Below, piece by piece: positions 18,321 to 39,081 of a DNA stretch of 64,000 bases. The stretch comes from an uncultured Pseudomonadales bacterium (GTDB lineage Bacteria; Pseudomonadota; Gammaproteobacteria; Pseudomonadales; CAZYQX01), in contig CAZYQX010000014.1 of NCBI GenBank assembly GCA_964649985.1, forward strand, positions 6,124-70,123. Direction: 5' to 3'. How positions within the stretch are numbered: position 1 is the first letter of the stretch; each line of letters begins with the position of its first letter. A program made the position numbers and the translations under genes. A model generated the notes under the pieces. It did not search any database, had not been told where the DNA came from, and worked only from the letters and a program-made list of their open reading frames with translations.

Positions 18321-18332
18321 TTGCCTGGCAAT

Positions 18333-18372
18333 AAACCATCCCCGCGCCAGCACTTCCCTTGAAGGGGAGGGC
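18333..18372 (+). repeat. REP-like hairpin element (PEGEG family), diverged forward copy
   Basis: aaaccatccccgcgccagcaCTTCCCTTGAAGGGGAGGG, immediately upstream of the DUF559 pseudogene. Confidence 0.55.
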
Positions 18373-18431: not shown

Positions 18432-18842
18432 ATGGATCAACGGATGATCCAGCGCGCCCGGCAGTTGCGGCGCGACACCACTGACGCAGAGCGGTGGTTG
18501 TGGCGCCACTTGCGGCAGCAGCAATTGCAGGGCTATCGCTTTTGACGGCAGCGGCCGGTCGGGCCCTACATCGCGGACTTTGCCTGCCTGCGCCCCCGGC
18601 TCGTGGTCGAGCTGGATGGCAGTCAGCATGTCGCGATGGCCGAGTATGATGACGCTCGCAGCCAGTACTTGTTGCGGGAGGGTTTCCGAGTCCTGAGATT
18701 CTGGAACCACGAGGTTTTTGAGAATATCGAAGGGGTGTTTCAGGTGATTCTTCATGCCTTGGAGAACCACCCCCACCCCAACCCTCCCCCTGAGGGGGAG
18801 GGGGCAGGCCTGTGTGCGGGCGCCGGTGTTGCTGCGCCATAA
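18432..18842 (+). pseudogene. DUF559 (restriction-endonuclease-like fold) protein gene, interrupted by an in-frame TGA
   Basis: The single frame reads MDQRMIQRARQLRRDTTDAERWLWRHLRQQQLQGYRF*RQRPVGPYIADFACLRPRLVVELDGSQH...LREGFRVLRFWNHEVFENIEGV. The TGA at 18543-18545 sits where family members have Arg (CGA). The last ~25 codons run into a REP copy. Confidence 0.8.
18765..18805 (+). repeat. REP-like hairpin element (PEGEG family), forward copy
   Basis: aaccacccccaccccaaCCCTCCCCCTGAGGGGGAGGGGG. It overlaps the 3' end of the DUF559 reading frame. Confidence 0.8.
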
Positions 18843-22324: not shown

Positions 22325-23032
22325 ATGACAGACCCCGTGCGCCTCTCCAAATACCTGGCCCAGACCCTGCCGTGCTCCCGCCGCGAGGCGGAACTCTACA
22401 TCGAAGGCGGCTGGGTGCTGGTGGATGGCGAGGTGGTGGACGACCCGCGCACCCCGGTGGCCGGCCAGCAGGTGAGCCTGCATCCCGAGGCCACCCTGGA
22501 GCCGCTGCCGCCGGTGACGATCCTGCTGCACAAACCCGCCGGCAGCCCCGCCGCCGCCAGCGAGCGCCTCACCCCGGCCAACCGCTCCGCACAAGATGCC
22601 TCAGGGATTCGCCTGATTCGCCGCCACTTCCAGCGGCTCACCGCCTGCATGGCGCTGGCCGACGCAGCCTGCGGCCTGCAGGTCTACACCCAGGATGGCC
22701 GCGTGGCGCGCAAACTCAGCGAAGATGCCGACCTGCTGGAGCAGGAACTGATCGTCGAGGTGGGCAGTACCCTGACGCCGGAGTTGCTGGCGCGCCTGAA
22801 CCAGGCCGGCAAGGCGCTGACGCGGCCGGTGCAGGGGCTCAAGATCAGCCAGCAGAGCGAGCAGCGGCTGCGCTTTGCGCTGAAAGGGCCCGCGCCGGGC
22901 TTTGTGGAGGAGGTGTGCCAGCGAGCGGGGTTGACGGTGTTGGGCATCAAGCGCTTGCGGATTGGGCGGGTGGCGATGTCGGGCTTGGCGGTAGGGGAGT
23001 GGCGTTATTTGCCGACGGGGACGCGGTTTTAG
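22325..23032 (+). CDS. S4-domain pseudouridine-synthase-like protein (RsuA/RluF-like, atypical catalytic motif)
   Basis: S4 domain RLSKYLAQ..SRREAELYIEGGWVLVDGEVV. The core aligns to the RsuA family, but the GRLD..GLLLLT motif reads MALADAACGLQVYTQDG. Confidence 0.6.
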   Translation: MTDPVRLSKYLAQTLPCSRREAELYIEGGWVLVDGEVVDDPRTPVAGQQVSLHPEATLEPLPPVTILLHKPAGSPAAASERLTPANRSAQDASGIRLIRRHFQRLTACMALADAACGLQVYTQDGRVARKLSEDADLLEQELIVEVGSTLTPELLARLNQAGKALTRPVQGLKISQQSEQRLRFALKGPAPGFVEEVCQRAGLTVLGIKRLRIGRVAMSGLAVGEWRYLPTGTRF

Positions 23033-23138
23033 AGCGGGGCTGGTGTTTGTCTTCAGGCCCCACCCGCCAGCCAGCACTGAATGAAATTTGCGTATGGCCT
23101 GGTTGATCGAAGTCACCACCCGCAGGCGCTGCGCTGAT

Positions 23139-23180
23139 CCCCTCCGCCTCCGCCTCCGGGGGAGGGCTAGGGGGGTGTTT
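23139..23180 (-). repeat. REP-like hairpin element (PEGEG family), reverse copy with (CCTCCG)x3
   Basis: cccctccgcctccgcctccgggggagggctaggggggtgttt. It lies at the left border of the AT-richer island. Confidence 0.7.
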
Positions 23181-23407
23181 CCTGCAGGCGCATCGGTTTT
23201 TTGGGCTGCGTAGTTGTCAGCCGTTTACAGGGGGCATGCCTGCGGGGGGGGGGGCGTTGTGTGTGCGCTTACTTCTTCTTTAGATCTTCTAATGAGTGAC
23301 ATGGCTGGTTTGTCTAAGTAAACTTAAGCCGCTAAAAAATTAAGCAATAGTGAGTTTTTAGTTGCTCAGCTTTTTTTGATTGCCACACTGTCTTAAAAGG
23401 ACTTGAG

Positions 23408-24667
23408 ATGTCTCTCGCCAGATGGAAATTACTTCTAGCCATTGTTTCCGTTCTTGAGCTGGCTGCCTGCTCGACAACAAGAATACCGCCAGAGTACCGT
23501 GCCCAATATGCAGGCCTTTCCGATGATCAGATTGATTTAATTGTACGCAGCGATGAAGCACATCAGGAGCTTCTGAGACAAGGGATGATCAGCCAAGAAG
23601 CCAGCCTGACCCGCTATGTTGAGGGGATCACAGCTCGCTTGCTGAAGCCTGTTCAATACGCGTTACCACCACAATTGCACATTCGTGTTTATGTTTTGCG
23701 CGATCCCCAGATCAATGCAATGGCGATGCCGAACGGCAATATTTATGTAAACGAAGGTTTGCTGGTTCGATTCCAGAATGAGGCGCAGCTTGCCTTTGTT
23801 CTCGGCCACGAGGTTTCGCATGTCACCGAGCAGCATTCACTAAAGGCACGGCAGGCAACGAAAACAACATCGGTTCTTCTCAACACTGCCGGAATGGTGC
23901 TAGACCCGAACTTAAGCATCATGGCTTCCATGTTGTATCTGTCTAACCACAGTCGAGATGCTGAAAGTGAGTCCGACCTAAAGGGATTGGACCTCATGTG
24001 TACGGCGGGGTATCAAGCTGACCAGTCTGTGAAAGCCATTGAGCTGTTACTTGAGGCCAAATCTGCAGATGCAATGACGGGTTCCATTTGGGGTAGCCAC
24101 CCTGGATTAAAGGACCGCATGAAGAATCTCGGCCAAGCCGGGTTGGCGAACCCAAATTGCGCTGGCAGCGAGGTGGAGGAGGGCGCTTTTACTGCGGTGA
24201 TCACTGATCAAGTTATCCAGGATGTGATCGAAATGAAACAGCGTCGTCGAAGTTATCAAAGCGCTTTTGATGTGAGCCAGGCACGCGCAATACAGCGCCC
24301 TCATGAAGTGCGGTATGTCTACCTAATGGGTGAGAGTCTCCGTCTGAAAGCGAGAGATCCCAAAGGTGCTGCGGAAGAAAGCCTATATTTAGAAGCTGGC
24401 AGCTTGCCGAGCGAAGTAAAAGTCACAGCCAAAATGAAAGCATACGAGGCTGAACGGCCTGAAACCGAAGCCCGTTCAGCTAAGTATCTGCAGGAGGCAA
24501 TCGCACTCGATCCTGGGTTCGCTCCTGCATACAGAGGTTTGGGGCTTCTTGCACAACAGCAAGGACTTAAGGATGAGGCGAAAAGTCAGTTGTCGCGTTA
24601 TCTGGAGCTAGCACCGACTGCGAAGGACAAACTATTTGTGGCTTCGCTCATTAAGTCGATTAAATGA
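23408..24667 (+). CDS. M48-family zinc metalloprotease lipoprotein with C-terminal TPR-like region
   Basis: 419 aa. Lipobox LELAAC, HEVSH (HExxH) in LGHEVSHVTEQH, C-terminal TPR-like AIALDPGFAPAYRGLGLL...LSRYLELAP. Confidence 0.75.
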   Translation: MSLARWKLLLAIVSVLELAACSTTRIPPEYRAQYAGLSDDQIDLIVRSDEAHQELLRQGMISQEASLTRYVEGITARLLKPVQYALPPQLHIRVYVLRDPQINAMAMPNGNIYVNEGLLVRFQNEAQLAFVLGHEVSHVTEQHSLKARQATKTTSVLLNTAGMVLDPNLSIMASMLYLSNHSRDAESESDLKGLDLMCTAGYQADQSVKAIELLLEAKSADAMTGSIWGSHPGLKDRMKNLGQAGLANPNCAGSEVEEGAFTAVITDQVIQDVIEMKQRRRSYQSAFDVSQARAIQRPHEVRYVYLMGESLRLKARDPKGAAEESLYLEAGSLPSEVKVTAKMKAYEAERPETEARSAKYLQEAIALDPGFAPAYRGLGLLAQQQGLKDEAKSQLSRYLELAPTAKDKLFVASLIKSIK

Positions 24668-24699
24668 TTTTTCATGAAACGTTAAAAAGGAGATTTTAG

Positions 24700-25410
24700 G
24701 TGAAAAAAATTGCTTTTTTTATGGTCATGCCAGTGATCCTGAGTATAGTTGGTTGTGGTTATACGACCGTACGCCAAGATGCGGATTGGCCTGCACGGAA
24801 GTCTGAAATTAAAACCATTGCCGTTGCTGTGAACAAGATCAATGTGGTCGAAGTGAATATGACGGGTGATGGTGGCCATGTGAAAGAGCAAGAGAAAGCT
24901 CTGGCCCAATATTCTGAGCAGGGACTGGTTAATGCTTTGTCGCAACATGGTTTTGTTGGTCGCAGCATTACCGGCGAAGAGTTGTCCAGTAATCCAGACC
25001 TGGCATTCGCAGTAAAGGAATTGGCCCAGAGTTACGAAGCTCTTGCGAAAGAGACCTATAAAACGCCTGCAATTCATGAAAAAATTGCCTACAAAACAGA
25101 TCTTAATGTTGGTGCAGCTGCTGCACCGGTGGCCGCAGCCACAGGTAGCGATGCTATCTTATTGGTAGATTACGATGGCTTTACTATTTCTTCGGGAAAA
25201 ATGGTAGCCAACATTGTCGTCGGTGCATTGCTAGGTTCAACTGCAGTTCCTCAACCAGCGGTCACTTCGCGCTTTGTATTGATTGATGGCCACAATGGAG
25301 ATGTTCTGTGTTCTAACATGGTGTCCATGCCGGGGGAGCCCAGCTATGCGGCACCAGCGCAGTCGGGAGCTGTATTAAAGGATATGCTTAGCGTATCAAA
25401 GGCAAAATGA
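24700..25410 (+). CDS. Lipoprotein of unknown function
   Basis: 236 aa. Signal peptide and lipobox (MKKIAFFMVMPVILSIVGC). I recognise no family. Separated by 32 nt from the M48 gene with its own aaaggag RBS. Confidence 0.55.
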   Translation: MKKIAFFMVMPVILSIVGCGYTTVRQDADWPARKSEIKTIAVAVNKINVVEVNMTGDGGHVKEQEKALAQYSEQGLVNALSQHGFVGRSITGEELSSNPDLAFAVKELAQSYEALAKETYKTPAIHEKIAYKTDLNVGAAAAPVAAATGSDAILLVDYDGFTISSGKMVANIVVGALLGSTAVPQPAVTSRFVLIDGHNGDVLCSNMVSMPGEPSYAAPAQSGAVLKDMLSVSKAK

Positions 25411-25566
25411 CCTTTTGGCCTTGTATAGCGTGCAATAACCAATGAGCAATGTGGCTTATCACTGCTTGAGTGGGGCTCATAGAAACAAAAAACAAAAGGA
25501 CACTCATAAAGCTCATTGACTAGCCAATGCTCACGGCCTGAGTAAGCGTGCCATGACTTACCGCAC

Positions 25567-25840
25567 GGTGCAGTTGTCCCCCTTGTAGTGAGCCGAGCGA
25601 AGTGCGGCTGATAGGGGGCAATTGGCCATGGATGGCCAATTGAGCGGCCTCGAATCAGGGATGAGCGTGGCCGCGACCCCGTGGCAGACGTGCTTCGATC
25701 GGGTAGCCCGGAGCGCAGCGCAGGGCCGAACGGTCAGGGGGCGCGGGGGAGTCCAGAGGGGCGCCGCGAAGCGCCCTTCTGGGGCCAGTCCGGCCCGAGG
25801 ACAGCGAGGCTAGATCGAGAGATGCGCTCATAGGTCAGCA
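25567..25840 (+). repeat. Long structured repeat, copy A (~270 bp, conserved ends and variable centre)
   Basis: It shares with copy B the 5' block ggtgcaGTTgTCCCCCTTgtAGTGAGCCGAGcGaaG and a ~150-bp 3' block (..cgaacggtCAGGGGGCGCGGGGGAGTCCAGAGGGGCGCCGCGaAGCGCCCTTCTGGGGCCAGTCCGGCCCGAGGACAGCGAGGCTAgATCGAGAGATGCGCTC..GGTCAGCA). There is no ORF of 60 aa or more with a coding look. Confidence 0.85.
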
Positions 25841-25915
25841 GTTAGACCAGTTTTAACCACCTCACGCAAACCACTACCGCAATCGAATTCCATCATCGAG
25901 GCCGCAGATGGCTTT

Positions 25916-25975
25916 GGGGCCTGTACGCTCAGAGGGCAGCGAAGCTAAATCGAGTGATGCGCTAGTCGGCCAGCA
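25916..25975 (+). repeat. Diverged direct copy of the GGGG-headed core unit
   Basis: GGGGCCTGTACGCTCAGAGGGCAGCGAAGCTAAATCGAGTGATGCGCTAGTCGGCCAGCA aligns without gaps to 25781-25840. Confidence 0.75.
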
Positions 25976-26160
25976 GCTAAGCACCTCACGCATCTGCCAT
26001 CAAACACCTAAGAGCCCATTCAAAATCTCACTGAAGGGCGCATCGCTGCGTTGAAATGGGCCTCAGTATGCTCACATACGCACGATATGCTCGGCTTGTT
26101 CGGCCCATTCCGGCCTTGTGCAGCATCCCTTGATCGGGTATTTCAACAGCCTGTTAGCAC

Positions 26161-26478
26161 CTAAAAGCCGCTAATGAGAAAATCTAGCGCAGCGATGATT
26201 TCATCGCGCTGCTCACTGATGTCAGCGACTTCTTTACCAAGGTCGCGCCGATGAACACCTGCAATTTGCGGTGTAAGCATCAAATAGTCTCTTCCTTCCA
26301 CGCGAAGCAACGGCGTCAAACCTGTTATTTGCGCAATTGCCTTCTTGTCGCAAGGTGCAAGCGGTGCAACAACACAGGTTTGGAGCGTATCAAGTAAGTC
26401 TGTTTGTACATTAAGCAAATAAGGAAAGCGCTTCTTGCTCTGCGCATTGGGGTTTGCGTAAACCGTAAATTGCTTCAT
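26161..26478 (-). CDS. ccdB: Type II toxin CcdB (gyrase poison family)
   Basis: 105 aa. MKQFTVYANPNAQSKKRFPYLLNVQTDLLD...LTPLLRVEGRDYLMLTPQIAGV is the typical CcdB pattern. Its ATGA start overlaps the ccdA stop. Confidence 0.85.
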   Translation of the reverse strand: MKQFTVYANPNAQSKKRFPYLLNVQTDLLDTLQTCVVAPLAPCDKKAIAQITGLTPLLRVEGRDYLMLTPQIAGVHRRDLGKEVADISEQRDEIIAALDFLISGF

Positions 26479-26723
26479 CAAAAACTTCTCAGGCCATCGC
26501 TGAAAACACCATGATCGTCTACGTGATTGTTGTATGCCTCGATGGCTTCCTGGTTTTGCCGTTTCCAATCTTCCCGTTGTTTCGCGCGAATTTGTTCAAC
26601 TAGCGCTTGCTCAAGGGCGGCGGATAGATTGATCTCTAGTGCGCGCGCCTTCTTTAATAAGTCACTGTTTATGCTGAGATTTGTCGCACGCTTTGGGGCG
26701 TTTAGATCGTATATTGCAAGCAT
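26478..26723 (-). CDS. ccdA: Type II antitoxin CcdA
   Basis: 81 aa. KRATNLSINSDLLKKARALEINLSAALEQALVEQIR..W..N..AI..YN is the CcdA family pattern. Its position is upstream of and overlapping ccdB. Confidence 0.8.
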   Translation of the reverse strand: MLAIYDLNAPKRATNLSINSDLLKKARALEINLSAALEQALVEQIRAKQREDWKRQNQEAIEAYNNHVDDHGVFSDGLRSF

Positions 26724-26828
26724 TGGGCTGCCCTCTATCTTCGATGCGTATAGCGTATGCGCATGGGGTCTGCGGGTCAAATGGGCGCTTAACAAAAAGG
26801 ACGCCTCCCTTGTGCTATAGCGCGCGCA

Positions 26829-26975
26829 TAGGTGGGGTCCAGACCCGACATTTATCCCCAGGTGGCACTGGCCGCAAATTGCGGGCTTCTGCTATGGCAT
26901 TCTCTTGCGTCGTCCCGCGTGCCAGTTAAGCTGGGCTCAGGTTTCATAAATGTCGGGTCTCGACCCGACGCATCT
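26829..26975. repeat. Inverted doublet of a second REP family (ATAAATGTCGGGTCTNGACCCNAC), REPIN-like
   Basis: The left copy taggtggggtccagacccgacatttatcc is the reverse complement of ggATAAATGTCGGGTCTGGACCCCAC. The right copy is tcATAAATGTCGGGTCTCGACCCGACgc. About 90 bp lie between them. Confidence 0.75.
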
Positions 26976-27067
26976 GCTCATCGAGCAGACAGCCCGCACA
27001 ACACCGCCAAGCAATCTGCCCCAGCTGCTAAAATCCCCACCCCACATCGCAAACGGTTGATCTCGCC

Positions 27068-27784
27068 ATGAGTCGCACAAAATGGATTGCAGGTGTTGGC
27101 CTGGCGCTGGTCATGGCCGGCGGTGGCTTGGTCTACAACACCTTTTTCACCGCCCCCGCATCGCAAGCACTGCCGTTGCCGCAGGCTCTGGTATCCCTCG
27201 ATAGCCCGGCCGGGCAGGCGCTGCTGGCCATGAGTGAGTCAAAGCAGGATTTCGAACAGTTACAGGCCGTGTTGCCCGCGCAGTCGCGCATGGCGTTTTG
27301 TGGCGTGGCAACGCTGCTGGGGGTACAGAACGCCGCCCTCAAGCCCCAGGGCGAAAGCTACGACCAGCAGACACTGTTTGCCTCCCCGGCGGGGCAGGTT
27401 AAATCGTCGCTTGCCGTGAGTTTTCAGGGCATTAATCTGAATGAATTGGCGCAGATGTTCAGCGCACTCGGCTACCAGGTGCAGCGCACGCCGGTGAACG
27501 CCGAGACCTCGCTGGCGCGCTTCAGAGCGGAGCTAAAAGCGAGCCTCGCCGATGGCACATCGTTTGTCGTGGTGAACTATGCGCGCGGGGTGTTGGGCCA
27601 GGCGGGCATGGGCCACATCTCACCGATTGGCGCCTACAACGCGGTGGAAGACAAGGTACTGGTCATGGATGTGGCCAAACACAAATACCCCTACACGTGG
27701 GTGCCGCTGAACAGCCTGTGGCAGGCGATGAACACCCAGGGCGACGACGGTGTGGCACGCGGCTACATCATCGCGACGCGCTAG
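27068..27784 (+). CDS. Phytochelatin-synthase-like (papain-fold C83) protein with N-terminal signal/anchor
   Basis: 238 aa. N-terminal hydrophobic segment WIAGVGLALVMAGGGLV. Candidate catalytic triad contexts MAFCGVATL (Cys), GHISPIGAYN (His), LVMDVA (Asp). Confidence 0.7.
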   Translation: MSRTKWIAGVGLALVMAGGGLVYNTFFTAPASQALPLPQALVSLDSPAGQALLAMSESKQDFEQLQAVLPAQSRMAFCGVATLLGVQNAALKPQGESYDQQTLFASPAGQVKSSLAVSFQGINLNELAQMFSALGYQVQRTPVNAETSLARFRAELKASLADGTSFVVVNYARGVLGQAGMGHISPIGAYNAVEDKVLVMDVAKHKYPYTWVPLNSLWQAMNTQGDDGVARGYIIATR

Positions 27785-27996
27785 CGGCAGGGGGGCAATA
27801 GGCTAAGGGCATTGCGCTGCATGGTCGGTGAGTTTCTCGGCGTGGTTAACCGAGAGGAGCAGAGAGGAACAAAAGGACACCCAAGTTGTTTGTTTTATAG
27901 CCAGATTTTGGTGGGGGAATAAGCAAGGGGCATTGCGCCGAGTGGCTGGTTAGACTGACTACTGCGACCAAGAATACGCGCCGCCACTTGCAGCGC

Positions 27997-28266
27997 GGTG
28001 CTGTTTCCCCCCTTAAAGTGAGCCGAGGAGCGGAGGCCGGGCGCGGAAAAAGGGCGAGGACTGTTTGAGCGTAGCCGTAGGCGGAGCGAGTTCCGCAGCC
28101 CCCGCGAACGGCTGAGCACCGCAGGTTACCCCGGCTGCGCAGCAGCCGGGGGCGAACGTCCAGGGGGCGCGGGGGAGTCCAGAGGGGCGCCGCGCAGCGC
28201 CCTTCTGGGGCCAGTCCGGCCCGAGGACAGCGAGGCTAAATCGAGAGATGCGCTCGTCGGTCAGCA
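27997..28266 (+). repeat. Long structured repeat, copy B
   Basis: See copy A. The 3' 110 bp is nearly identical (28150-28266 vs 25733-25840). It contains a perfect 10-bp hairpin ccccggctgc-gca-gcagccgggg where copy A has an imperfect one. Confidence 0.85.
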
Positions 28267-28327
28267 TTTAACCTGATTAAACTATTTCACCCGCGCCCAA
28301 TCAAACGCCTCGACCCTCACGGCAGAA

Positions 28328-28352
28328 GGGGCCAGTCCGGCCCGAGGACAGC
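28328..28352 (+). repeat. Direct copy of 25-nt core GGGGCCAGTCCGGCCCGAGGACAGC
   Basis: Identical 25-mer to 25781-25805 and 28207-28231. Confidence 0.85.
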
Positions 28353-28428
28353 AGGCTTAAATCAATTCGCCAAACTTATCGGTTGGCTGGCGCTAAAGGC
28401 TATTGGAATAAGTTGGGCTTGCCCCTCT

Positions 28429-28453
28429 GGGGCCAGTCCGGCCCGAGGACAGC
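28429..28453 (+). repeat. Direct copy of 25-nt core GGGGCCAGTCCGGCCCGAGGACAGC
   Basis: Identical 25-mer, the third copy in the tandem series at the right side of the island. Confidence 0.85.
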
Positions 28454-28549
28454 AAGGGTGATCTGCGTACTAATGTTATCGAGATCTGGTTGAGCAATAC
28501 GAAGTGACTCGGTAGCCCTCGCAGCCAAAACAGATGATGAAACGGCTGG

Positions 28550-28591
28550 AAACACCACCCCCACCCTAGCCCTCCCCCTGAGGGGGGAGGG
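28550..28591 (+). repeat. REP-like hairpin element (PEGEG family), forward copy
   Basis: aaacaccacccccaccctagCCCTCCCCCTGAGGGGGGAGGG. It lies at the right border of the island, inverted relative to 23139-23180. Confidence 0.8.
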
Positions 28592-28611
28592 AATTGCAGA
28601 GAGCGAGGGGC

Positions 28612-29847
28612 TCAGCCCCCCAGCAACTCCCGCGCAAACTGAATCTGCTTCGGCAAGCAAATGCGCTTCAGATCGTAGTTTTCCACCACGTGCTGGCGCG
28701 CCCGCTGGCGCATGTCCTGGTAGCGCTCCGGTTCCGCCAGGGCGCTCACCACCCGTTCGCTGAAGCCCTTCTGATCAAAGAAATCGAACAGCAGGCCGGT
28801 CTTGCCGTCTTCCATCGCTTCCAGCACCGGCGGGGTGGAGGAGGCGATCACGGTGCATTCGGCGGCCATGGACTCCAGCAACGACCAGGACAGCACGAAG
28901 GGGTAGGTGAAATAGGCGTGGGCGCGGGACACCTGCAGTACGCGCAGGTAGTCGGCGTAGGGCAGCTTGCCGAGGAAGTGCACGCGGTTCAGGTCTAGTT
29001 TGTCGCCGACCTCTTTCAGCAGGGCGATTTTCCAGTTCTCGGCGTCCTTGGGCTTGCGGCCGTAGCTGACGTCTTCACCGCCAATGATCAGGGTGTGGGC
29101 TTCGGGGCGCTGGCGCTGGATTTCGGGCAGGGCGCGCATGAACACGTGGAAGCCCCGGTGGGGCTCCAGGTTGCGGTTGACCAGGGTGAGCACCTCGTGC
29201 TGCCGGGTCAGTTGCACGCCACTGGGTGTGGTGAAGCTGGCGTTGGCGTCGGGCACCACCACATCGGTGTCGATGCCTTCGTGGATGACCTGGATGCGCG
29301 GCTGATATTCCTCCGGGAACAGACTGCGCTGCCACTGAGTCGGGCTCCAGCCGCGATCGACGCCGGTCCAACTCAGTAGGTGGGTGGCGTTGCGGGTGCG
29401 CAGGCGGAAGCGGTCGTCGAACTGCAGCGGGAACTCGGGGTCGTAGCCGGCGTCTCCGCCCTCGGCGTGGTAGTAGTATTCGAAGTAGCCGACGATGCGG
29501 GCCTCGGGGAAGATGTCGCGCAGGTAGAGGGCTTCACCCCAGCCGGCGTGGGCGAAGATCACCGAGGGTTTGAAGCCCTGTTTCTTGAGGTCCTGGCACA
29601 GCCTCACCACCGCCTGGCCGCGCAGCACGTTTTCTTCCAGCCCGCGCAGGTAGTGATGGGTTTGTGGGGCGGCGGCGCGCGGCATTTCATAGCCGACCAG
29701 CTTGACCCCTTGGGTCATGGCTTGTTGGCGCAGTACGTTCTGCTTTTCGCCAATGCCTACCACCACGTTTTTACTGTTTTGGGCCAGGTAGGTGGCGAGG
29801 TGGCGGAACTGGCCGGGGAAATTCTGGTGGAGAAACAGTATGTGCAT
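28612..29847 (-). CDS. Glycosyltransferase family 4 (GT-B fold)
   Basis: MHILFLHQNFPGQFRHL N-terminus. C-terminal GT4 pattern FVLSWSLLESMAAECTVIASSTPPVLEAMEDGKTGLLFDF (E-x7-E-like). Confidence 0.75.
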   Translation of the reverse strand: MHILFLHQNFPGQFRHLATYLAQNSKNVVVGIGEKQNVLRQQAMTQGVKLVGYEMPRAAAPQTHHYLRGLEENVLRGQAVVRLCQDLKKQGFKPSVIFAHAGWGEALYLRDIFPEARIVGYFEYYYHAEGGDAGYDPEFPLQFDDRFRLRTRNATHLLSWTGVDRGWSPTQWQRSLFPEEYQPRIQVIHEGIDTDVVVPDANASFTTPSGVQLTRQHEVLTLVNRNLEPHRGFHVFMRALPEIQRQRPEAHTLIIGGEDVSYGRKPKDAENWKIALLKEVGDKLDLNRVHFLGKLPYADYLRVLQVSRAHAYFTYPFVLSWSLLESMAAECTVIASSTPPVLEAMEDGKTGLLFDFFDQKGFSERVVSALAEPERYQDMRQRARQHVVENYDLKRICLPKQIQFARELLGG

Positions 29848-31239: not shown

Positions 31240-33081
31240 TCACAGGGCGGTGGGGGGGAGCGGGCAATCCAGGGCCAGGGCCACGGCACGCATCAGCTCC
31301 TGTGCTTCTGGGCCGTCAGCTAAGCATGACAGACAGGCTTTGAGCAGCAAGGGGCGCTGGAGTGGCTGGAGTTGCCGCAGTTGCTCCAGGGCTGCGCTGA
31401 ACATGGGCAGGTCGATAACCCGGCGAGGGAGAGGAATATCCTGCCCGAGGTGTTGTTCCGCGCGCTCAAATGCTTCCAGCACGGCATCGCCTTCGCGGCG
31501 AAAATGGGCCAGGAAACTGAGCAGCACGCCTATTGCGGGGGCCAAACTTTGCAGGGAGCGTTGGCTGCGGATGCGTTTTATTGCGTTGCAGAGTGGGTAT
31601 AGCGTGAGTTGGTAGACCAGCCACTCCGAGAGGTCGGTTGTGCCATCCGCGTCGATCAGTTGGCGGGCAAGGGTCTGCAGCGCTGCGCGTTGGGTGGGGC
31701 TGGCGTCGTGCAGGGTGGGGATGAGGAGTTCCAGCAGCGGCAACCTGTGTGCTGGTGTTAACGCCTCCAGTGCCGGCAGCACGGCCATGAGCCATGGGCT
31801 GAGATCAGGCCAACTGTGGTGTATCGCGTCGAGCTGTTGTTGGCGCAAGCGCGCATCGGCTGACAATAACAGCGCCACCACAATGGACATGGCCCCATCC
31901 AGTGCCGTGGCGGCGTGCTGGAGTTGGGGCGGGAGTTGTTGCAGCGCAGTGCGGGCGTGTTCGATGGCGTCTGCGGCGTGGTCATGCGAGGTGGCGTTGG
32001 GCGTCAGCGTGCTCAGCTCGCTATCGCGCAAGGTGTCTTGGGGGGCGGGGTCGGGGAAATGCCCATCCCACTCGGGTTCCAGGCGCCTGATGCGTTCATC
32101 GAGGGGCGGATGTGTTGCAAACAACCGCTGAGGGTGCGCGAACATGCTGCCGAAAAACAGATGGCTGTAGCAGTCTGCGTTGCGATGCTGCATCTGGGAG
32201 CCGCAGTGTGCGTTGCCGATGCGCTTCAGTGCATTGGCGATGCCTGTGGGATTGCGGGTGAATTGCACCGCTGAGGCGTCGGCCAGGAATTCACGCTCGC
32301 GGCTGACGGCGGCCTTTATCAGCCGGCCCACCAGCATGCCAATGGCTCCCAGTGCCATTAGGCCGATGCCGAGCAGGGCCAATAACAATTTCGCCCGTGC
32401 GCTGTCTTTGCCGTGGGAACTCACTTCGTTGGCCATGCGCAATGCAATGCGACCACTCAGGTAAATGAAGAGAATGCCGTGCAGCAGGGACAACAGTTGT
32501 GTGTTCAGCCGCATGTCACCATTGTGGATGTGGCTAAATTCATGGCCGATCACGCCCTGAAGTTCATCGCGGTTAAGCTGCTCAAGGGCGCCTCGCGTAA
32601 CGCCGATCACGGCGTCGTGCAGGGTGTAACCTGCGGCAAAGGCGTTGATGCCCGGCTCATCCATGAGGTAGACCGCCGGCACGGGCGTGCCGGAGGCAAT
32701 GGCCATTTCTTCCACGATGTTGAGCAGGCGCCGTTCCAGCGGGGAGGCGAGCCCGGGGTGCAAGCGGGTGCCGCCCAGGGATTCAGCCACTACGCGACCT
32801 CCTCGGCGGAGCTGGTACCACTTGTATAGTGTGATGCTCGCGATGCCACTGATGACAACGGCACTGGTGAGCAGGAATTGCCAGGGCTGGACTTTCATCA
32901 GCGCGTGGTGGACGGGGTGCGGGCTTGCTATACCGCCCTGCAGCAATTCTGCCCCCTGTAAAAAAACCACCAGCAATAGGTTGGTGGCCACTAGAAGCGC
33001 CACGATGGCCAGACAGAACAACAGCATCAATAGGCGCGTTGAGCGCCGGGCGCTCTCCTGTTGTTCAAAGAAGTTGAGCAT
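31240..33081 (-). CDS. M48-family (HtpX-like) membrane metallopeptidase with ~280-aa unassigned helical C-terminal domain
   Basis: 613 aa. N-terminal TM helices, IGHEFSHIHNGD (HExxH), further TM helices, then a Leu/Ala-rich C-terminal region that I cannot assign. Confidence 0.75.
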   Translation of the reverse strand: MLNFFEQQESARRSTRLLMLLFCLAIVALLVATNLLLVVFLQGAELLQGGIASPHPVHHALMKVQPWQFLLTSAVVISGIASITLYKWYQLRRGGRVVAESLGGTRLHPGLASPLERRLLNIVEEMAIASGTPVPAVYLMDEPGINAFAAGYTLHDAVIGVTRGALEQLNRDELQGVIGHEFSHIHNGDMRLNTQLLSLLHGILFIYLSGRIALRMANEVSSHGKDSARAKLLLALLGIGLMALGAIGMLVGRLIKAAVSREREFLADASAVQFTRNPTGIANALKRIGNAHCGSQMQHRNADCYSHLFFGSMFAHPQRLFATHPPLDERIRRLEPEWDGHFPDPAPQDTLRDSELSTLTPNATSHDHAADAIEHARTALQQLPPQLQHAATALDGAMSIVVALLLSADARLRQQQLDAIHHSWPDLSPWLMAVLPALEALTPAHRLPLLELLIPTLHDASPTQRAALQTLARQLIDADGTTDLSEWLVYQLTLYPLCNAIKRIRSQRSLQSLAPAIGVLLSFLAHFRREGDAVLEAFERAEQHLGQDIPLPRRVIDLPMFSAALEQLRQLQPLQRPLLLKACLSCLADGPEAQELMRAVALALDCPLPPTAL

Positions 33082-33087
33082 GGGCTA

Positions 33088-33681
33088 TCAGAAACTGACC
33101 TTGGGGGCCGCCTGCAGGTTTGCCCGTTCGGGGAGGTCAAGTAGCGCGGCATCCCGAGCGTGGCCGAAAGAGGCGGCGAAGAGTGCGGCGGGAAAGCTTT
33201 GTCGGAAGGTGTTGTATTCCGTTACCGCGTCGTTGAAGGCCTGACGGGCGAAGGCGACCTTGTTCTCGCTGGAGGTGAGCTCTTCGGAGAGTTGCTGCAT
33301 GGTGCTGTTGGCTTTGAGGTCGGGGTAGGCCTCCATCACGACATTGAATTGCCCCATGGCGCGCCCGAGTGCGGCCTCTGCTGAGCCCAGCGCAGAGGTG
33401 GCCGCGTCGTCACCCGGGTTGATCTTCATGCGGTCTAGCCCGGCCAGGGCCTGATTGCGCGCGGCGATGACGGCTTCCAGCGTCTCCCGCTCGTGGGTGA
33501 GGTAGGCCTTGGCGGTTTCCACCAGATTGGGGATGAGATCGTAACGCCGGCGCAGCTGCACATCGATTTGGGCAAAGGCGTTCTGGTAGCGGTTTTTGAG
33601 CGCGACCAAGCGGTTGTATAGATATATGACCAGCCCCACGCATAGGGCCAGGATGATGAGCAGAATGCCTAGGCTATCCAT
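33088..33681 (-). CDS. LemA family protein
   Basis: 197 aa. N-terminal TM, then YNRLVALKNRYQNAFAQIDVQLRRRYDLIPNLVETAK..ERETL, the LemA signature. Its stop is 6 nt before the M48 start. Confidence 0.85.
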   Translation of the reverse strand: MDSLGILLIILALCVGLVIYLYNRLVALKNRYQNAFAQIDVQLRRRYDLIPNLVETAKAYLTHERETLEAVIAARNQALAGLDRMKINPGDDAATSALGSAEAALGRAMGQFNVVMEAYPDLKANSTMQQLSEELTSSENKVAFARQAFNDAVTEYNTFRQSFPAALFAASFGHARDAALLDLPERANLQAAPKVSF

Positions 33682-33718: not shown

Positions 33719-36403
33719 TCAGTTCTGTGCGCTTAACAATGCCCGCCCCAGCTCGCGCGCCAGCGCTACGCTGCTGACGGGTTTGCTGAGTACAGCCATG
33801 GCCCCGGCCGCTTGTAGCGCGCTGATGGTGTCGCTATCTTGCTGGCTTGTCATGGACAGCAGCGGCAGGGGCGCATCGGCGCGGCGTGCGGCCATCAGGC
33901 GCAGTGCGCGTGGCATTTCGGTGCCGCCCAGGCGGGGTAGCTCGCTGTCTATGATCAGCGCTGCAATCGACTGCCAGTGCTGTTCGGCATAATCGAGCGC
34001 CTCTTGGGCATCAACACAGAAGTGCGGCCTGAAGCCGAGGCGTTCCAGCTGTTGTTTTAGCAATCGAGCGTTTACGGGATTGTCGTCCACCACTACCGTC
34101 AGTGGGCGGTGACGCACGATGTTTTCCCGTTCCGTGTTGAGGGCAATAAGCTCACTGATCAGCTGCCCGAAAACCATGCTGCGCACGGGTTTGGCAAAAT
34201 ACAGGGCACCCGCCAGCTCTTCGCCCGCGCGCAGGGCTGAGAGATCCTTAGCGGATAGAACGAGCAGGCCCTCTTTGGGCAGGGAGTCAAGTTCTGCCAG
34301 CAAGGTAGAAGAAAGCCATTGGGAGGCTTCTGGCAGGCGAGGGTTGAACGCGATTACGTCCGGGGCGGTCCGTCCATCCAGCAACTCTATGCCTTGGCTC
34401 ATGTCTGCTGCATACAGAACGTCCATGCCCCAGTCGCGCGCTTCATCCGTGAGCGCAATGCGGTCAGCACTATCGGTATCCACCAATAGCAGGGTTTGCT
34501 GACGGACAGCGGGCAGCGCAACCTGCAGGGTCTGCTGGCAGAATTCGAAGGCCAATGTCAGGCTGTAGCTGCGCCCGCTTCCCTTGTGCGTGGAGATCTG
34601 CAGATCACCGCCCAGGTGTCTCGCCAGTGCGCGGCAGCCTTCCAGATTGATGTCTGAGAAGATGGGCTGAGATCCCTCTGCAGGGGAGAGCTCCTGCGCC
34701 GTTTCTGGGGCAAGCGTGTGAATGCTGCTGTCGTCCAGAGTGAAGCATAGGCGCAGCGGCCCTGCTTCAGTGGCTGGGACGCGCTCTACGCGTAGCAGCA
34801 AGTGGCCACGGTAGGCGCGGTGCATGGCATGGTCCAACAGGCCGATCAGCATGCGCCGCAGGCGCGGCTCATCTCCGCTGAGAAGCATGGGGATTTCGGG
34901 CGCAATATCCACGCCAATGGTCAGCCCTGTGGCACGCGCGCGCGATAGCAGGGTCTGCAGAACATCGCTCAACACGATGTCCAGACAGAAATCGAGACGG
35001 TTCGTGTGCAGGAGGTCGCGTCGCATGCGGGCCATGTCTTCCAGATTTTCCAGCGTCACCTGCAAGCGGGCGGCACTGCGTTCAATGTGCAGCGCTGTGC
35101 GTGCCTGTTCCACGGGGATGCGTGCCTTGGCCAGCCGGCTTATCAACGAGAAGAAACCTTCCAGCGCGGGGTGCAAGTTGAGTGAGATGCGTGCCAGAAG
35201 CTGCTGCTGTGTGCTGGCGAGCGCCTCTTGTCTTGCTTGCTGTAGGCTTACCGGGTTGTTCGTGGGGCTCAGGTTGGTCGATTGCGTGTCGAGCCCCTTG
35301 AGCATGATGGCCCCACTGAGCAATGCCGTAAGAAGTAACAGCAAGTCGCGTTGCTCGGCGGCCCAGAGCCAGTGGTAGCTGACAAATTGTAAGGCCGTCG
35401 GGATGGTCGCCGCCATGAGAATGCTGATGGCAAAGGCCGTGGCGCCCGGGAAGTCGCGCTCGCGGTTGACACTTGCTGTCACAAGGGCCACGGCGATGAG
35501 GAAGCCGAAGCACGCGAGATAGAGAAATTTGAACAATGGAATGTTGCCTGCTGCGGCGAGGGGCAGAAGCACCACGGCGGTACTTAGCAGATACAGGTTG
35601 AAACCAAGATGAAGCCGCGGATGGCGGTTTTTACTCTGATAGACCTCGCGCAGTAGCGCGGCAGCGATGAGCAATGTTGCACTTTGGGCAAGCAATGTGA
35701 ATGAGGTGTTGAGCAGGCCGGCACCCAGCAGCTGGTGCTTGCCGCTGTATGCCAGCACGTTGGCCAATAGCCAGCCCGCCAGCCAGGCAAAGGCCGCTGT
35801 CTTTGCCCGCCACTGGCTGCTGGCGCTCAGCAGGGTCACGCCGAGTGCCGCACCGACCACGAGCCATTCGAGGAGTTTGTTTTGGGCATTTGTTTCCAAC
35901 AGTGAGTTACTGCTGTGAACACGCAGAGAGAGGGAAAGCTGGTCGCGGCTTTGCAGGCAGAGCAACACGGTTTGGGGCGTATTGTTGAGTATGCGGATGG
36001 GCAGTGAGGGAAAACCTTGGGCACTCAATATCGGCCTGACATCCAGAGGCGTGACCAGACTGTTGCTGGCACTGAACGCGCTAAAGTGCTCCAGTGAAGC
36101 ATTGGCCACGCTGATCCAGAGTGTGTCGTTTTCGGTGCGTGGCAACTGCAGTTTGATCCACACGTTTGCCGCTCGCATGCCGAGCTGCGCTGGGGTTTTG
36201 CCGTCGCTGAGCTTGCGCCAATGGCTCTGCGGGAGCGCAGCAATCTGCTGGGCATCCTGCGGGCCGAGTGGGGAGAGCAGATAAACCGCGTCAGCAACGC
36301 TGTCCGTGTCGGAGCGCGTGGATTCCTGCGCCATGCTGTTAGCGGTACTCGTCATCAGCCAGGCGGTTAAAGCAGTCAATAGCAGGGCGCGTAGCGTAAT
36401 CAT
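33719..36403 (-). CDS. 7TMR-DISM hybrid sensor kinase-like protein with degenerate ATP-binding motifs, plus C-terminal receiver
   Basis: 894 aa. Signal peptide, periplasmic domain, about 7 TM helices, H-box-like ISLNLHPALEG. The N-box reads LLDHAM (Asn to Asp) and G1 reads TLDDSS (no DxGxG). The terminal REC has ALIIDSELPRLGG. Confidence 0.7.
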   Translation of the reverse strand: MITLRALLLTALTAWLMTSTANSMAQESTRSDTDSVADAVYLLSPLGPQDAQQIAALPQSHWRKLSDGKTPAQLGMRAANVWIKLQLPRTENDTLWISVANASLEHFSAFSASNSLVTPLDVRPILSAQGFPSLPIRILNNTPQTVLLCLQSRDQLSLSLRVHSSNSLLETNAQNKLLEWLVVGAALGVTLLSASSQWRAKTAAFAWLAGWLLANVLAYSGKHQLLGAGLLNTSFTLLAQSATLLIAAALLREVYQSKNRHPRLHLGFNLYLLSTAVVLLPLAAAGNIPLFKFLYLACFGFLIAVALVTASVNRERDFPGATAFAISILMAATIPTALQFVSYHWLWAAEQRDLLLLLTALLSGAIMLKGLDTQSTNLSPTNNPVSLQQARQEALASTQQQLLARISLNLHPALEGFFSLISRLAKARIPVEQARTALHIERSAARLQVTLENLEDMARMRRDLLHTNRLDFCLDIVLSDVLQTLLSRARATGLTIGVDIAPEIPMLLSGDEPRLRRMLIGLLDHAMHRAYRGHLLLRVERVPATEAGPLRLCFTLDDSSIHTLAPETAQELSPAEGSQPIFSDINLEGCRALARHLGGDLQISTHKGSGRSYSLTLAFEFCQQTLQVALPAVRQQTLLLVDTDSADRIALTDEARDWGMDVLYAADMSQGIELLDGRTAPDVIAFNPRLPEASQWLSSTLLAELDSLPKEGLLVLSAKDLSALRAGEELAGALYFAKPVRSMVFGQLISELIALNTERENIVRHRPLTVVVDDNPVNARLLKQQLERLGFRPHFCVDAQEALDYAEQHWQSIAALIIDSELPRLGGTEMPRALRLMAARRADAPLPLLSMTSQQDSDTISALQAAGAMAVLSKPVSSVALARELGRALLSAQN

Positions 36404-36411
36404 GTACTGGC

Positions 36412-39081
36412 TCAGATGGCGTTTGCGTTGGGAAGGCAGATTTTTTGCAGCTGGCGTCCAAGTTCTGCTGACAGGACGGGTTTTTCCAGCACGGCATCTA
36501 TACCGGCCGCCCGGGCGCGGCTGTGTTCGATACTGCCGGCACTCAACAGCAGCAGTGGCAGTCGTGGGCTACCTTGGCTGGCCTCCCGGGCACGGATTTC
36601 CCGGGCGCAACGCAGCCCATCCATGATCGGCATGTTGGCACTCAGCAGGGCGCAATCGTAATCCTGCGTATGCGCCACCAGTTCTTCCAAGGCGCTGACG
36701 CCGTCTGGGCAGGTCTTGACACTCGCACCCAGCTGGCGGAGCAGCCCTTGGGTGACGATCTGCGCTGTAGGGTCATCTTCAGCCAACAGCACCCTCAAGT
36801 TGAGTGTCGACTCGGGAGCGGCTGAGTTGGACACGGTTTCTGTGACGACTTCAATGCGCTGTGCTGCCCGAATGCTGCTTTGCAAGCTGCTGAGATCGAT
36901 CGGTTTGGGTGTGAGCCTGAACCCTGGTGCCTGGTGCGCACTGAACTTGATGTCAGAGCACATCAAAATGATGTTTCTTGGGGCGAGGGGGGCAGCGCGG
37001 TAATGTTCTATGAGGCGGCTGAGCGACTCTTCATCGAGAGGCGGTGCGACAATGAACAGCATATGAGCGCGTTCACCTCGGCGCAGCGCATCTTCACTGA
37101 CGGTGTTCACGCCCCATAGGGCTAGCTGTTCTGCAATGGCATGGCGGATGAAATGGGAACCTCCAGCCAGGCCCACGCGGGTTCCTTGCAGTGCCATGGC
37201 ATCACCGGACGATGGGGGGAAACCCACCGGGCAGGGGAGCGTGAAGCCGTATTGCGTGGGCGTCTTGTTTCGGTCGCGCCAAACCCCACCCATTTCGTCG
37301 AGCAGGCGCGCACAGCGGTCACTTGGCTGCGCCATGCTGGATGCATCATTGGCTCCGAACAGTTCCACTTGGAATTGCAAGAGCACGCTGCCGGCGCGGA
37401 TTTCTTCCACTTGGCAACGCAAGGTTATCCCCGGCACACCCTGGCTCAGTGCGTGGTTGAGTAGCTCCAGCAGCACTTCCTGCAAGCGTTGTCGATCGAG
37501 TTTGCATTGAGGTGGCACGTCGGGTGACAGCAGCAGTGCCAGCTCTTGATTATTGAGGCTGGCGCCTGAGGCAAGGCTGTTAAGCAGTGCGGTGAGGAAC
37601 ACTGGCAATTCGGTGTCCTCGCGTTCCAATTGGCTGCTGCCTTCGCGTTGACGGCGGGTGTCAATCACATCATCAAGTAATGTCAGCAGGCCAGTGCCAG
37701 TTTGTTCTATCTGAACCAAGGCGGCGTTAAGGCCAGCAGGGATCGGTTGTGAGCGCATCATTTGCGCTAGCCCGAGGCAGTCTGACATGGGGGCTCTTAC
37801 GGCGTGCCCCAAGGTAGTACTCATCATGGCCTTTATACTGCCTACCGCTTTCTCGTGGGCGTTGTTTTGCGTTTCTGCCCGAGCTTGCGACCTGAGGTAT
37901 TGCTCTCGGTGAGAGATGGCCATGGTGAGGGCCAAGATGGCGAAGCCGATGAGCACTGAACCAATGGGTTGTAGCAGGTCAACACGCTGACTGAGGCCTG
38001 TGCTCAGTACGATCAGGAGGCTGCCCACCACGGTTAACAGCAGGGTTCCCACCAGGTAGGGAATGGCGGGTGTATAGCCCTGGTGCATCCTGTTCCATGC
38101 CAGGCGAATGAAGATCAGCGATGCAATGAAAATGATGGGTGTCATCAGTGTCAGCATCAGGGCTTCCGGAATGCCTGCCGTCACGCCCACCGCCCAGGCG
38201 GCACTGTATGCGGCGTAAAAGCCAAGCAGTCGATGTGTGTTCTGATGCCTTCTTGCGGTATCGAAAATCTGTTGGCTGACCAGCGCATGAAACGTTATCG
38301 CCAGCAGTGGGGCGCCCACTCTGAACAGCGTGGCGAGGAGCGAATTTTCTGCGGTCAGCAGGTGGAAATCATTGTTGCGGGCACCCGTTGCTGCCACCGT
38401 TGCCAGGCAGAGCCCGGCCATGAGCCAGTTGCTGAATCCGCCTTGGCGCATGCCATTAAGCAGGTGAAAGATGCACAGGCCCGCCAGCAGGCCCATACCC
38501 AAGCCGCTTGCCAGCTTTAGCCAGTGTTGGTACTGAAGATAGCCGGCCTCACTTCTTAGTTGAACGGGAAAGGTGTCGATGCGCAGGTCATATGCACGCA
38601 GATAGTAAATTTGCGAGCTGTTGGCCGGCAGATGTAGCCGAGCCACGGGGAGCGCATTGCCAAATGAAAGTGCCTGCGTGCTGTGCGTGCCAAGTTGCTG
38701 GCTAACCCAGCCTTGTTGGGACGCCTGGTAGATATCAACCCGTTCAATGTCTGGATTCGGGATCTCCAGAATCAGGTTGATATCTTCTGCGGTGGGATTG
38801 CTCAACAAGAAGCGGAACCAGAATACCCGTTGACGTGTGCTCGTCCCGCCACCGGCCTTGCCGTTAAACGCCTGGAAGGCCGGCGCCTGGCGGTCGGCTT
38901 CCTCTACGCTCCACTTCCCGGCGCCATCCTCCACAAAGCGCAGTTGCCTGCTGATGTCGAAGCCTGTCGCCAGTTTGTCAGGCTGCACGATGGTTGGGCT
39001 GTCGTCGGCTGCGTGGCTGCCCATCGCAAGGAGCAGTAGCAGAAGGCTGGTAGTGAGGTGTTGTATGAGCCTGCTGATCAT
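36412..39081 (-). CDS. 7TMR-DISM hybrid sensor kinase-like protein with degenerate G-boxes and an Asp-less C-terminal receiver
   Basis: Signal peptide MISRLIQHLTTSLLLLLLAMGSHA (an alternative GTG start lies at 39117). Periplasmic domain, about 7 TM helices, H-box TLGHAVRAPMS, N-box LLNHAL, no DxGxG or GxGLG. The receiver reads CALLSANMPIMDG where the phospho-acceptor Asp is expected. Confidence 0.7.
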   Translation of the reverse strand: MISRLIQHLTTSLLLLLLAMGSHAADDSPTIVQPDKLATGFDISRQLRFVEDGAGKWSVEEADRQAPAFQAFNGKAGGGTSTRQRVFWFRFLLSNPTAEDINLILEIPNPDIERVDIYQASQQGWVSQQLGTHSTQALSFGNALPVARLHLPANSSQIYYLRAYDLRIDTFPVQLRSEAGYLQYQHWLKLASGLGMGLLAGLCIFHLLNGMRQGGFSNWLMAGLCLATVAATGARNNDFHLLTAENSLLATLFRVGAPLLAITFHALVSQQIFDTARRHQNTHRLLGFYAAYSAAWAVGVTAGIPEALMLTLMTPIIFIASLIFIRLAWNRMHQGYTPAIPYLVGTLLLTVVGSLLIVLSTGLSQRVDLLQPIGSVLIGFAILALTMAISHREQYLRSQARAETQNNAHEKAVGSIKAMMSTTLGHAVRAPMSDCLGLAQMMRSQPIPAGLNAALVQIEQTGTGLLTLLDDVIDTRRQREGSSQLEREDTELPVFLTALLNSLASGASLNNQELALLLSPDVPPQCKLDRQRLQEVLLELLNHALSQGVPGITLRCQVEEIRAGSVLLQFQVELFGANDASSMAQPSDRCARLLDEMGGVWRDRNKTPTQYGFTLPCPVGFPPSSGDAMALQGTRVGLAGGSHFIRHAIAEQLALWGVNTVSEDALRRGERAHMLFIVAPPLDEESLSRLIEHYRAAPLAPRNIILMCSDIKFSAHQAPGFRLTPKPIDLSSLQSSIRAAQRIEVVTETVSNSAAPESTLNLRVLLAEDDPTAQIVTQGLLRQLGASVKTCPDGVSALEELVAHTQDYDCALLSANMPIMDGLRCAREIRAREASQGSPRLPLLLLSAGSIEHSRARAAGIDAVLEKPVLSAELGRQLQKICLPNANAI

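Follow-up and report, generated by a model that had tools for sequence, protein, structure and literature searches.

The stretch analysed here, 64,000 nucleotides (nt) of contig CAZYQX010000014.1 from an uncultured Pseudomonadales bacterium (the window, to whose positions all coordinates refer and which is the part of the genome in which copy number was examined), carries at two loci a modular, hairpin-rich repeat located on the plus strand behind a cargo gene. The initial annotation had described a ~270-bp structured repeat at these two loci, each 3' of a plus-strand cargo gene, and this description is borne out by sensitive blastn of positions 23000-28700 against the window: copy A (25547-25865), 3' of a lipoprotein gene (24700-25410), and copy B (27977-28290), 3' of a phytochelatin-synthase-like (PCS-like) gene (27068-27784), align at 72% identity over 322 columns with an E-value of 1e-45, and both are recovered by nhmmer, copy A with 300 bits. 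The repeat pair is real, far beyond chance; it is conserved in a modular way, is non-coding, folds better on the plus strand than on the minus strand and, in the centre of copy A, gives a near-threshold match to the RNA family TwoAYGGAY (RF01731). The preferred reading, to which a probability of roughly 40% is assigned, is that of a plus-strand modular structured repeat that would be transcribed with the upstream genes as a 3' extension and whose scaffold would present an exchangeable central domain.

The extent first assigned to the two copies, 25567-25840 and 27997-28266, holds for the core of the element, but the homology reaches ~20 nt further on each side, and a gap-free extension pairs 25723-25844 with 28149-28270 at 93% identity. 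In the MAFFT alignment, from which the block identities were taken, the similarity of A and B is a mosaic: ~25% with islands of identity in the spacer that follows the stop codon, 76% in the 5' block (25547-25600), 45% in the centre (25601-25700), 71% in the middle (25701-25735), 96% (101/105) in the 3' block (25736-25840 in A and 28162-28266 in B), and 42% in the tail after it. On the left, the similarity of A to B fades gradually without a sharp boundary, whereas the right end is near-sharp, the 3' block ending within ~10 nt at ...GGYCAGCA in both full copies and in a third, truncated one (25913-25982), with weakly similar sequence beyond. Three hairpins make up the 3' block: a long one (25753-25782 in A, 28179-28208 in B), a short one followed by a purine tail, and one with a GAGA loop.

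The element had been reported as present twice, which is correct for full copies; at least three truncated 3' modules on the same strand had escaped notice. The one directly after copy A (25913-25982) is diverged, covers the block from the short hairpin onwards and is found by blastn at 78-82% identity and by nhmmer with an E-value of 6.5e-12. The other two follow copy B and are also detected by both programs; that at 28328-28364 has an exact core and decayed flanks, and that at 28421-28459, which still has the 3' arm of the long hairpin, shows 95% identity over 37 nt. Each truncated copy has its start either close to the base of the short hairpin or within the 3' arm of the long one and continues in the 3' direction; all five copies share one strand, which is that of the upstream genes. 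Profile searches confined the copies to 25411-28460 and gave no further copy on either strand of the remaining 58 kb of the window.

At the heart of the 3' module there is a 24-nt core, GGGCCAGTCCGGCCCGAGGACAGC (25782-25805, plus strand), made up of a 5-bp hairpin with a 5-nt loop and the tail GAGGACAGC. It is identical at 25782, 28208, 28329, and 28430, four exact matches against 0 expected from shuffled sequences; its copies are spaced 101-134 nt apart by diverged linkers, and in the truncated copies its flanks are barely recognisable. An exact core amid decayed flanks indicates constraint or gene conversion acting on that module. Under either an RNA-level or a DNA-level reading of the repeat, such a hairpin core points to a specific binding partner.

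All the hairpins quoted in the initial annotation are present. The CAATTGGCCAT/ATGGCCAATTG hairpin of copy A (25619-25642) is 100% complementary, while the CCAGAGGGGCGC/GCGCCCTTCTGG and GGGCC-AGTCC-GGCCC hairpins occur in both copies; the CCCCGGCTGC-GCA-GCAGCCGGGG hairpin of copy B (28129-28151) has a perfect 10-bp stem whose counterpart in A (25706-25726), with the same GCA loop, is imperfect. The further homology on the left adds a boundary hairpin, H0, which reads CGTGC...GCACG in A (25547-25567) and CGCGCCGC-CACTT-GCAGCGCG in B (27977-27997) and which, together with GGTGCWGTT..CCCCCTT..AGTGAGCCGAG, forms a conserved 5' clamp. Neither copy has terminal inverted repeats, as already noted in the initial annotation.

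Folding of copy A gives -142.0 kcal/mol (z -3.35) for the plus strand and -123.3 kcal/mol (z -2.76) for the minus strand, and the corresponding values for copy B are -145.2 (z -2.17) and -129.9 (z -1.36), so that in both copies the plus strand folds 15-19 kcal/mol better. The predicted structures contain G-U pairs, one in the long hairpin and two in the closing stem of A, which are C-A mismatches on the other strand, and all four substitutions between the 3' blocks lie at positions unpaired in the consensus fold. In H0, five pairs are kept by RNAalifold, one of them with a compensatory U-A to C-G change; a second T-A/C-G exchange, higher in the stem, was seen by eye only. Strand bias, wobble pairs, loop substitutions, and the H0 exchange would favour, weakly, a single-stranded form of the plus strand; the support is weak because there are only two sequences and the structure was derived from those same sequences, and it would apply to RNA and to single-stranded DNA alike.

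The central domains are where the two copies part. The centre of A (25586-25709, plus strand) is predicted to be a three-way junction both by cmscan and by the minimum free energy (MFE) fold, and it matches TwoAYGGAY over the full model (1-168) at 40.3 bits, with an E-value, under permissive filters, of 3e-4 in a 3.4 kb region and 3.7e-5 in 401 nt. The statement that the element has no match to any RNA family is therefore accurate at the Rfam gathering thresholds, at which no match was obtained, and incomplete below them. As regards the features of the family, the closing stem in the MFE fold of A has ~22 pairs with single-nucleotide interruptions, in accordance with the P1 stem of TwoAYGGAY, which is often very large, up to 24 bp, according to the authors of the motif (Weinberg et al. 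2010; PMC2864571 supplement). The two loops, CAUGGAUG (25627-25634) and CAGGGAUG (25656-25663), are 29 nt apart and joined by an AG linker; the first contains AUGGAU, which agrees with the AYGGAY of the family, and the second the variant AGGGAU, which is also found in seed members from Psychromonas (P. ingrahamii), where CAGGGAUG-type loops include the identical 12-mer AAUCAGGGAUGA. TwoAYGGAY was independently predicted to bind CsrA (PMC4333381), and both loops of A fit the CsrA consensus obtained by SELEX, RUACARGGAUGU with GGA in a hairpin loop (PMC4347634), their GGA being in a predicted hairpin loop.

The centre of B (28030-28125, plus strand), 45% identical to that of A, has its own GC-rich closing stem, GGCCG..CGCGG / CCGCG..CGGCU. 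The initial annotation had considered the central ~90 bp of the copies unrelated, which is not wholly the case: both centres have in common a TTGAGCG junction and the sequences flanking the closing stem. Since B keeps the flanking GAGCCGAG and GGUWRCCCCGG segments, the junction and a closing stem of its own without the TwoAYGGAY loops, A and B have a scaffold in common and differ in the centre that it encloses. The resemblance of the A centre to TwoAYGGAY is structurally sensible yet below the curated threshold, and the larger scaffold matches nothing described.

Between the stop codon and the element, each locus has a spacer of low aligned identity (25411-25546 in A and 27785-27976 in B, plus strand) in which short motifs are shared. 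AACAAAAGGACAC lies at 25491-25503 and 27868-27880, that is, 81 and 84 nt past the stop codons ending at 25410 and 27784, exactly as first annotated. The spacer of A also contains GCAATAACCAATGAGCAATGTGGC (25432-25455), a GCAATA-type motif that occurs twice, as direct copies, in the spacer of B (27795-27819 and 27906-27929). This motif is similar to the long hairpin's 5' arm (AAGGGGCATTGCGCC vs AGAGGGGCGCCGCGC), and for this reason the spacers may likewise derive from repeat modules that have decayed. Behind the truncated copy at 25913-25982 there may be, by eye, a further and heavily decayed unit (26027-26124), in which GAAGGGCGC...GCG resembles the long hairpin and GGCCCATTCCGGCC-TTGTGCAGC (26102-26124) the 24-nt core; it was not detected by nhmmer.

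Relatives of the element were sought in larger collections. The exact 24-mer core gave 0 matches in genome, metagenome, and viral contig collections; a degenerate core pattern gave 19 matches in genome contigs and a 5'-block pattern gave 7 in metagenome contigs, all of them limited to the pattern itself. Copy A gave nothing by blastn against plasmids and phages, and the exact open reading frame (ORF) is not on record in any assembly. In these searches no homologue of the element was found.

According to the preferred reading, a full unit would begin just past the stop codon of a plus-strand gene and would comprise the spacer, the 5' clamp, a self-closed central domain, and the 105-nt 3' module with its three hairpins. 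The element would be transcribed as a 3' extension of the upstream gene, a prediction that derives from the lack of any detected plus-strand terminator-like site between the upstream gene and the element in A or B. The 5' and 3' modules would act as a stable scaffold, either shielding the end of the transcript or displaying the centre, and the centre would be an exchangeable payload. In A this payload would be a TwoAYGGAY-type double hairpin whose two CANGGAUG loops, 29 nt apart, would in sequence and geometry suit high-affinity binding of one CsrA/RsmA dimer, and it could either put the upstream mRNA under Csr control or titrate CsrA/RsmA; the payload of B would be different, with no assigned partner. 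Transcription, CsrA binding, and the logic of scaffold and payload are what we infer from the organisation of the element.

Several observations weigh against this reading. The initial annotation had named uniqueness to the island as a result that would refute its account, and as far as the searches went, namely the pattern scans and the BLAST against plasmids and phages, no homologue was found outside it. The fold z-scores are modest, and there are 5 double changes among 68 predicted pairs, a count that comes from two sequences and from a structure derived from the same two. The wobble pairs and the strand bias fit a single-stranded DNA intermediate equally well, and the 96% identity of the 3' block could be due to recent gene conversion instead of selection. 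No plus-strand promoter-like or terminator-like site, of the kind that a discrete RNA would have, flanks A or B. As regards the payload, the TwoAYGGAY score of 40.3 bits is 2.7 below the Rfam gathering threshold of 43, the match is absent from an E-value scan of the whole 64 kb with stricter filters, and the centre of B has no CANGGAUG loops and gives no Rfam match. GGA is not enriched, with 1.6-2.2 occurrences per 100 nt compared to 1.3 in the window as a whole; a GacA/UvrY box (TGTAAG-N6-CTTACA-like) is absent near A and B, and no csrA gene lies within the window, a result that says nothing on the rest of the genome.

The nearest alternative, somewhat unlikely in our estimate, is a repeat that functions at the DNA level, either a REP/BIME- or NIME-like mosaic or a non-autonomous derivative of the IS200/IS605 or RAYT type, in which an enzyme with its gene elsewhere in the genome would recognise the hairpins of one DNA strand, the truncated copies would be leftovers of repeated local insertion or unequal crossing-over, and any transcript would be incidental. 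The lack of terminal inverted repeats, the hairpin-rich ends, and the single orientation of all copies are in line with such an origin, as are the near-abrupt end of the 3' block at ...GGYCAGCA in A, B, and 25913-25982 and the exact 24-nt hairpin core amid decaying flanks, which is a feature of REP sequences and dRS3; moreover, the host genome has a separate REP-like family. A similar hint comes from the source samples. Short-read contigs (Logan L002 and L001) carrying the lipoprotein and PCS genes end at 25606 and 28036, with last 31-mers (25576-25606 and 28006-28036) that start one base before the same alignment column (25577/28007), where YCCCCCTT begins; the contig covering B is identical in two samples, and L001 starts at 26122. 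A and B have no common 31-mer at the contig ends, so the branching of the graph is not caused by A and B themselves, and the ends suggest further copies or allelic variants in the samples, with a left boundary near YCCCCCTT. On the other hand, an origin at the DNA level has to face the absence of a transposase, RAYT, or recombinase in the 64 kb window, of any other copy in its remaining 58 kb, and of copies in the genome, metagenome, and viral pattern scans and in the plasmid/phage BLAST; the left boundary between A and B is gradual instead of sharp, no omega-RNA or IS605 family of Rfam is matched even at E = 10, and no reason is given for a TwoAYGGAY-type fold in the centre of A.

A second alternative, decidedly improbable, regards the copies as recombination sites or scars, that is, cassette-boundary or attL/attR-type direct repeats resulting from the site-specific insertion of a 2.4-kb ccdAB-PCS segment, with the truncated 3' modules as displaced fragments of earlier insertions, as in integron arrays or in tandem islands at tRNA genes. 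The repeats do separate segments of unlike GC content, the toxin-antitoxin pair between them is reverse-oriented, a feature of chromosomal cassette arrays, the M48-lipoprotein operon, compared with its only homologous locus, is truncated immediately behind the lipoprotein stop codon, and the start points and 3' direction of the truncated copies would suit such fragments. However, there is no attC architecture, no R''/R' inverse-core pair in or beside A or B, and no integrase, tRNA, or tmRNA gene in the window; with only 38-60 nt between each fragment and the copy before it, there is too little room for former islands, and the contig ends are unlike those of a simple excision polymorphism, which would break the left-flank contigs 30 nt earlier than observed. 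A decayed or unrecognised coding sequence, a pseudogene or a small-protein gene duplicated with its surroundings, is close to refuted. On both strands the conserved block is traversed by open frames of 50-84 codons, and in one of the plus-strand frames the third positions are GC-rich, but different frames are open in each copy (the minus-strand ORF of A is in another frame than that of B), and 8 stops interrupt the one frame reported for the wider A unit (25411-25860). Read in the frame that looks most like coding sequence, the four A/B changes in the 3' block affect codon positions 2, 1, 3, and 2. The two frames that were tested have no protein homologues, the 84-aa minus-strand ORF among 5.8 billion clusters and the 50-aa plus-strand frame among 1.84 billion representatives, and the absence of coding potential first claimed for the element is thereby upheld.

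The genomic context is that of an island. The copies are located in a low-GC stretch of ~5.4 kb (~23190-28550; 47-50% GC vs 62-68% in the flanks) between convergent host genes. The island contains, in order, an M48/TPR peptidase gene and the lipoprotein gene, copy A and the truncated copy behind it, the minus-strand genes ccdB-ccdA, a miniature inverted-repeat element, the PCS-like gene (Pfam PF05023), and copy B with two truncated followers; the GC content is 47-50% in the M48-lipoprotein segment, 47% in ccdAB, and 61% in the PCS segment. The lipoprotein has one homologue, 65% identical, at locus L003 (3937-8439), the only locus homologous to the M48/TPR-lipoprotein pair of the island; there the operon is longer, with DUF945 and another gene after the lipoprotein and no element, whereas in the island the pair is cut off after the lipoprotein stop codon. 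As the homologue lacks it, the element is not an inherited 3' end of the lipoprotein gene. For the PCS-like protein, no relative exceeds 50% identity. No tRNA or tmRNA gene was found in the 64 kb window, and no integrase, transposase, RAYT, or recombinase domain among the ORFs scanned across it.

Other features of the region were also recorded. The separate REP-like family, D2, is a host-wide hairpin repeat (AACACCACCCCC..CCCTCCCCCTGAAGGGGAGGGG) placed just after genes and unrelated in sequence to A and B. Its plus-strand copies lie at 12827-12867, 18332-18372, 18763-18803, and 28551-28591, and an inverted copy, the left one of the island, was read by eye at ~23140-23180; inverted D2 copies bracket the low-GC island, one after each convergent host gene, and the short-read contigs of three samples all break off within D2, 55 nt beyond the end of the glycosyltransferase gene. 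The miniature inverted-repeat element (26832-26975, ~140 bp) lies between the promoter region of ccdA and the PCS-like gene, has terminal inverted repeats of ~20-23 bp that contain GACCCGACATTTAT, folds as DNA with a z of -4.3, and has no other copy in the window. It is overlapped by the sole attC-like pair of the island, GCTTAAC...GTTAAGC (26787-26931), a perfect RYYYAAC/GTTRRRY pair 145 nt apart, which is incompatible with a single hairpin; it starts with TTAACAAAAAGGACGCC, resembling AACAAAAGGACAC, and ~0.1 such pairs are expected by chance. At 31240-33681 and 33719-39117 there are a LemA-family gene and a second M48 peptidase, adjoining two tandem genes for hybrid sensor kinase/response regulators of ~900 aa with 7TMR-DISM; the M48 peptidase of the island is a second, foreign copy of a family already at the locus.

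The presence of Psychromonas-type loops in the centre of A leads to the loci of the family in P. ingrahamii. In the alignment with flanks provided by the authors of the motif, the seven TwoAYGGAY loci of this organism are clustered repeats with conserved flanks: upstream there is a GGACACCCAAA box, P1 is followed by a long perfect hairpin, and a further module, repeated in tandem at ~125-150 nt, combines the short GC hairpin CGCC-GUCAGG-GCGG with AAGACCAAC behind it. The corresponding parts of the element described here are AACAAAAGGACACCCAAG, a 12-bp hairpin, and GGGCC-AGUCC-GGCCC with GAGGACAGC in tandem copies at 101-134 nt. When this parallel was put to objective tests, nhmmer gave no homology of the flanks to the Psychromonas copies; by Smith-Waterman alignment the upstream flanks were marginal over dinucleotide shuffles (p ~0.03-0.1 per copy) and the downstream flanks not better than shuffles (p ~0.6), and a covariance model of the Psychromonas module of long and short hairpins did not match the 3' block. 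The flank parallel is a lead only, not carried by these tests. The wider proposition to which it leads, which we regard as improbable, is that TwoAYGGAY would be the mere centre of a larger multi-copy modular family common to the AT-rich Psychromonas and this GC-rich proteobacterium, with an upstream GGACACCCAA box, a 5' clamp, an exchangeable payload, a long clamp hairpin, and tandem short hairpins with purine tails; such a family would act as a mobile RNA (or single-strand) scaffold by which different protein-binding payloads, a CsrA-type decoy in A and something else in B, come to lie 3' of horizontally acquired genes. If this were the case, the contig-graph breaks at the same column would reflect further members with a defined 5' end.

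The distinction among these readings has consequences for what the repeat can teach. If the element acts as RNA, TwoAYGGAY, an orphan for 16 years, would gain a genomic context as a swappable insert in a larger scaffold at the 3' ends of acquired genes, and there would be a concrete handle on CsrA binding and on the wiring of acquired genes into a global post-transcriptional regulon. If it acts as DNA, it would be one more lineage-specific mosaic repeat, useful mainly as a marker of recombination and of assembly breakpoints.

Among known systems, integron attC sites and cassette arrays share with the element the presence of a repeat after each cargo gene, the heterogeneous GC content, a reverse toxin-antitoxin cassette, and short "empty" units. 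They differ in that the element is no single imperfect palindrome and has 2-4 times the length of the usual attC (~57-150 nt), and no integron integrase is encoded in the window; an attC assignment was rejected after a script scan of both strands of 23000-28700, which gave no RYYYAAC/GTTRRRY pair in or next to A or B. The CsrB/RsmX/RsmY/RsmZ small RNAs (sRNAs) resemble copy A in having GGA in predicted loops within an CANGGAUG context, with two sites spaced for one CsrA dimer; nevertheless, the loops are only two and only in A, unlike the many GGA sites of these RNAs, there is no GacA/UvrY box and no promoter or terminator of its own, and the apparent position is that of a 3'-untranslated region (3'-UTR) instead of a free-standing sRNA gene. 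A Csr sponge comprising the whole element fails as a candidate, given the lack of GGA enrichment, of a GacA box, and of a terminator.

IS200/IS605 ends, palindrome-associated elements, and omega-RNAs also lack terminal inverted repeats and have strand-specific hairpins and a fixed orientation, and the right block of ~105 nt that ends near-abruptly recalls them. In contrast with these systems, the window contains no tnpA or tnpB gene or remnant, there is no match to IS605-orfB or HEARO at E = 10, and neither a sharp left boundary nor a conserved target tetranucleotide was identified. REP/BIME sequences in Enterobacteria and Pseudomonas, NIME/dRS3 in Neisseria, and BOX in the pneumococcus are extragenic, lie 3' of genes in clusters, and consist of short modules variably combined, with a short hairpin core in decayed arrays. 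The 24-nt hairpin core described here is likewise a short palindromic core in extragenic arrays; however, the unit is much longer (300-500 nt), has a large structured centre, keeps all its copies in direct orientation, and has no copy in the other 58 kb of the window.

TwoAYGGAY differs from the element in that the conserved 5' and 3' blocks fall outside the Rfam model and copy B is without the motif. In the centre of A, the same three-way junction, long closing stem, two loops, AG linker, and 29-nt spacing are found, and in P. ingrahamii the motif is likewise multi-copy and clustered, being followed by a long perfect hairpin and by tandem modules of a short hairpin with a purine-rich tail.

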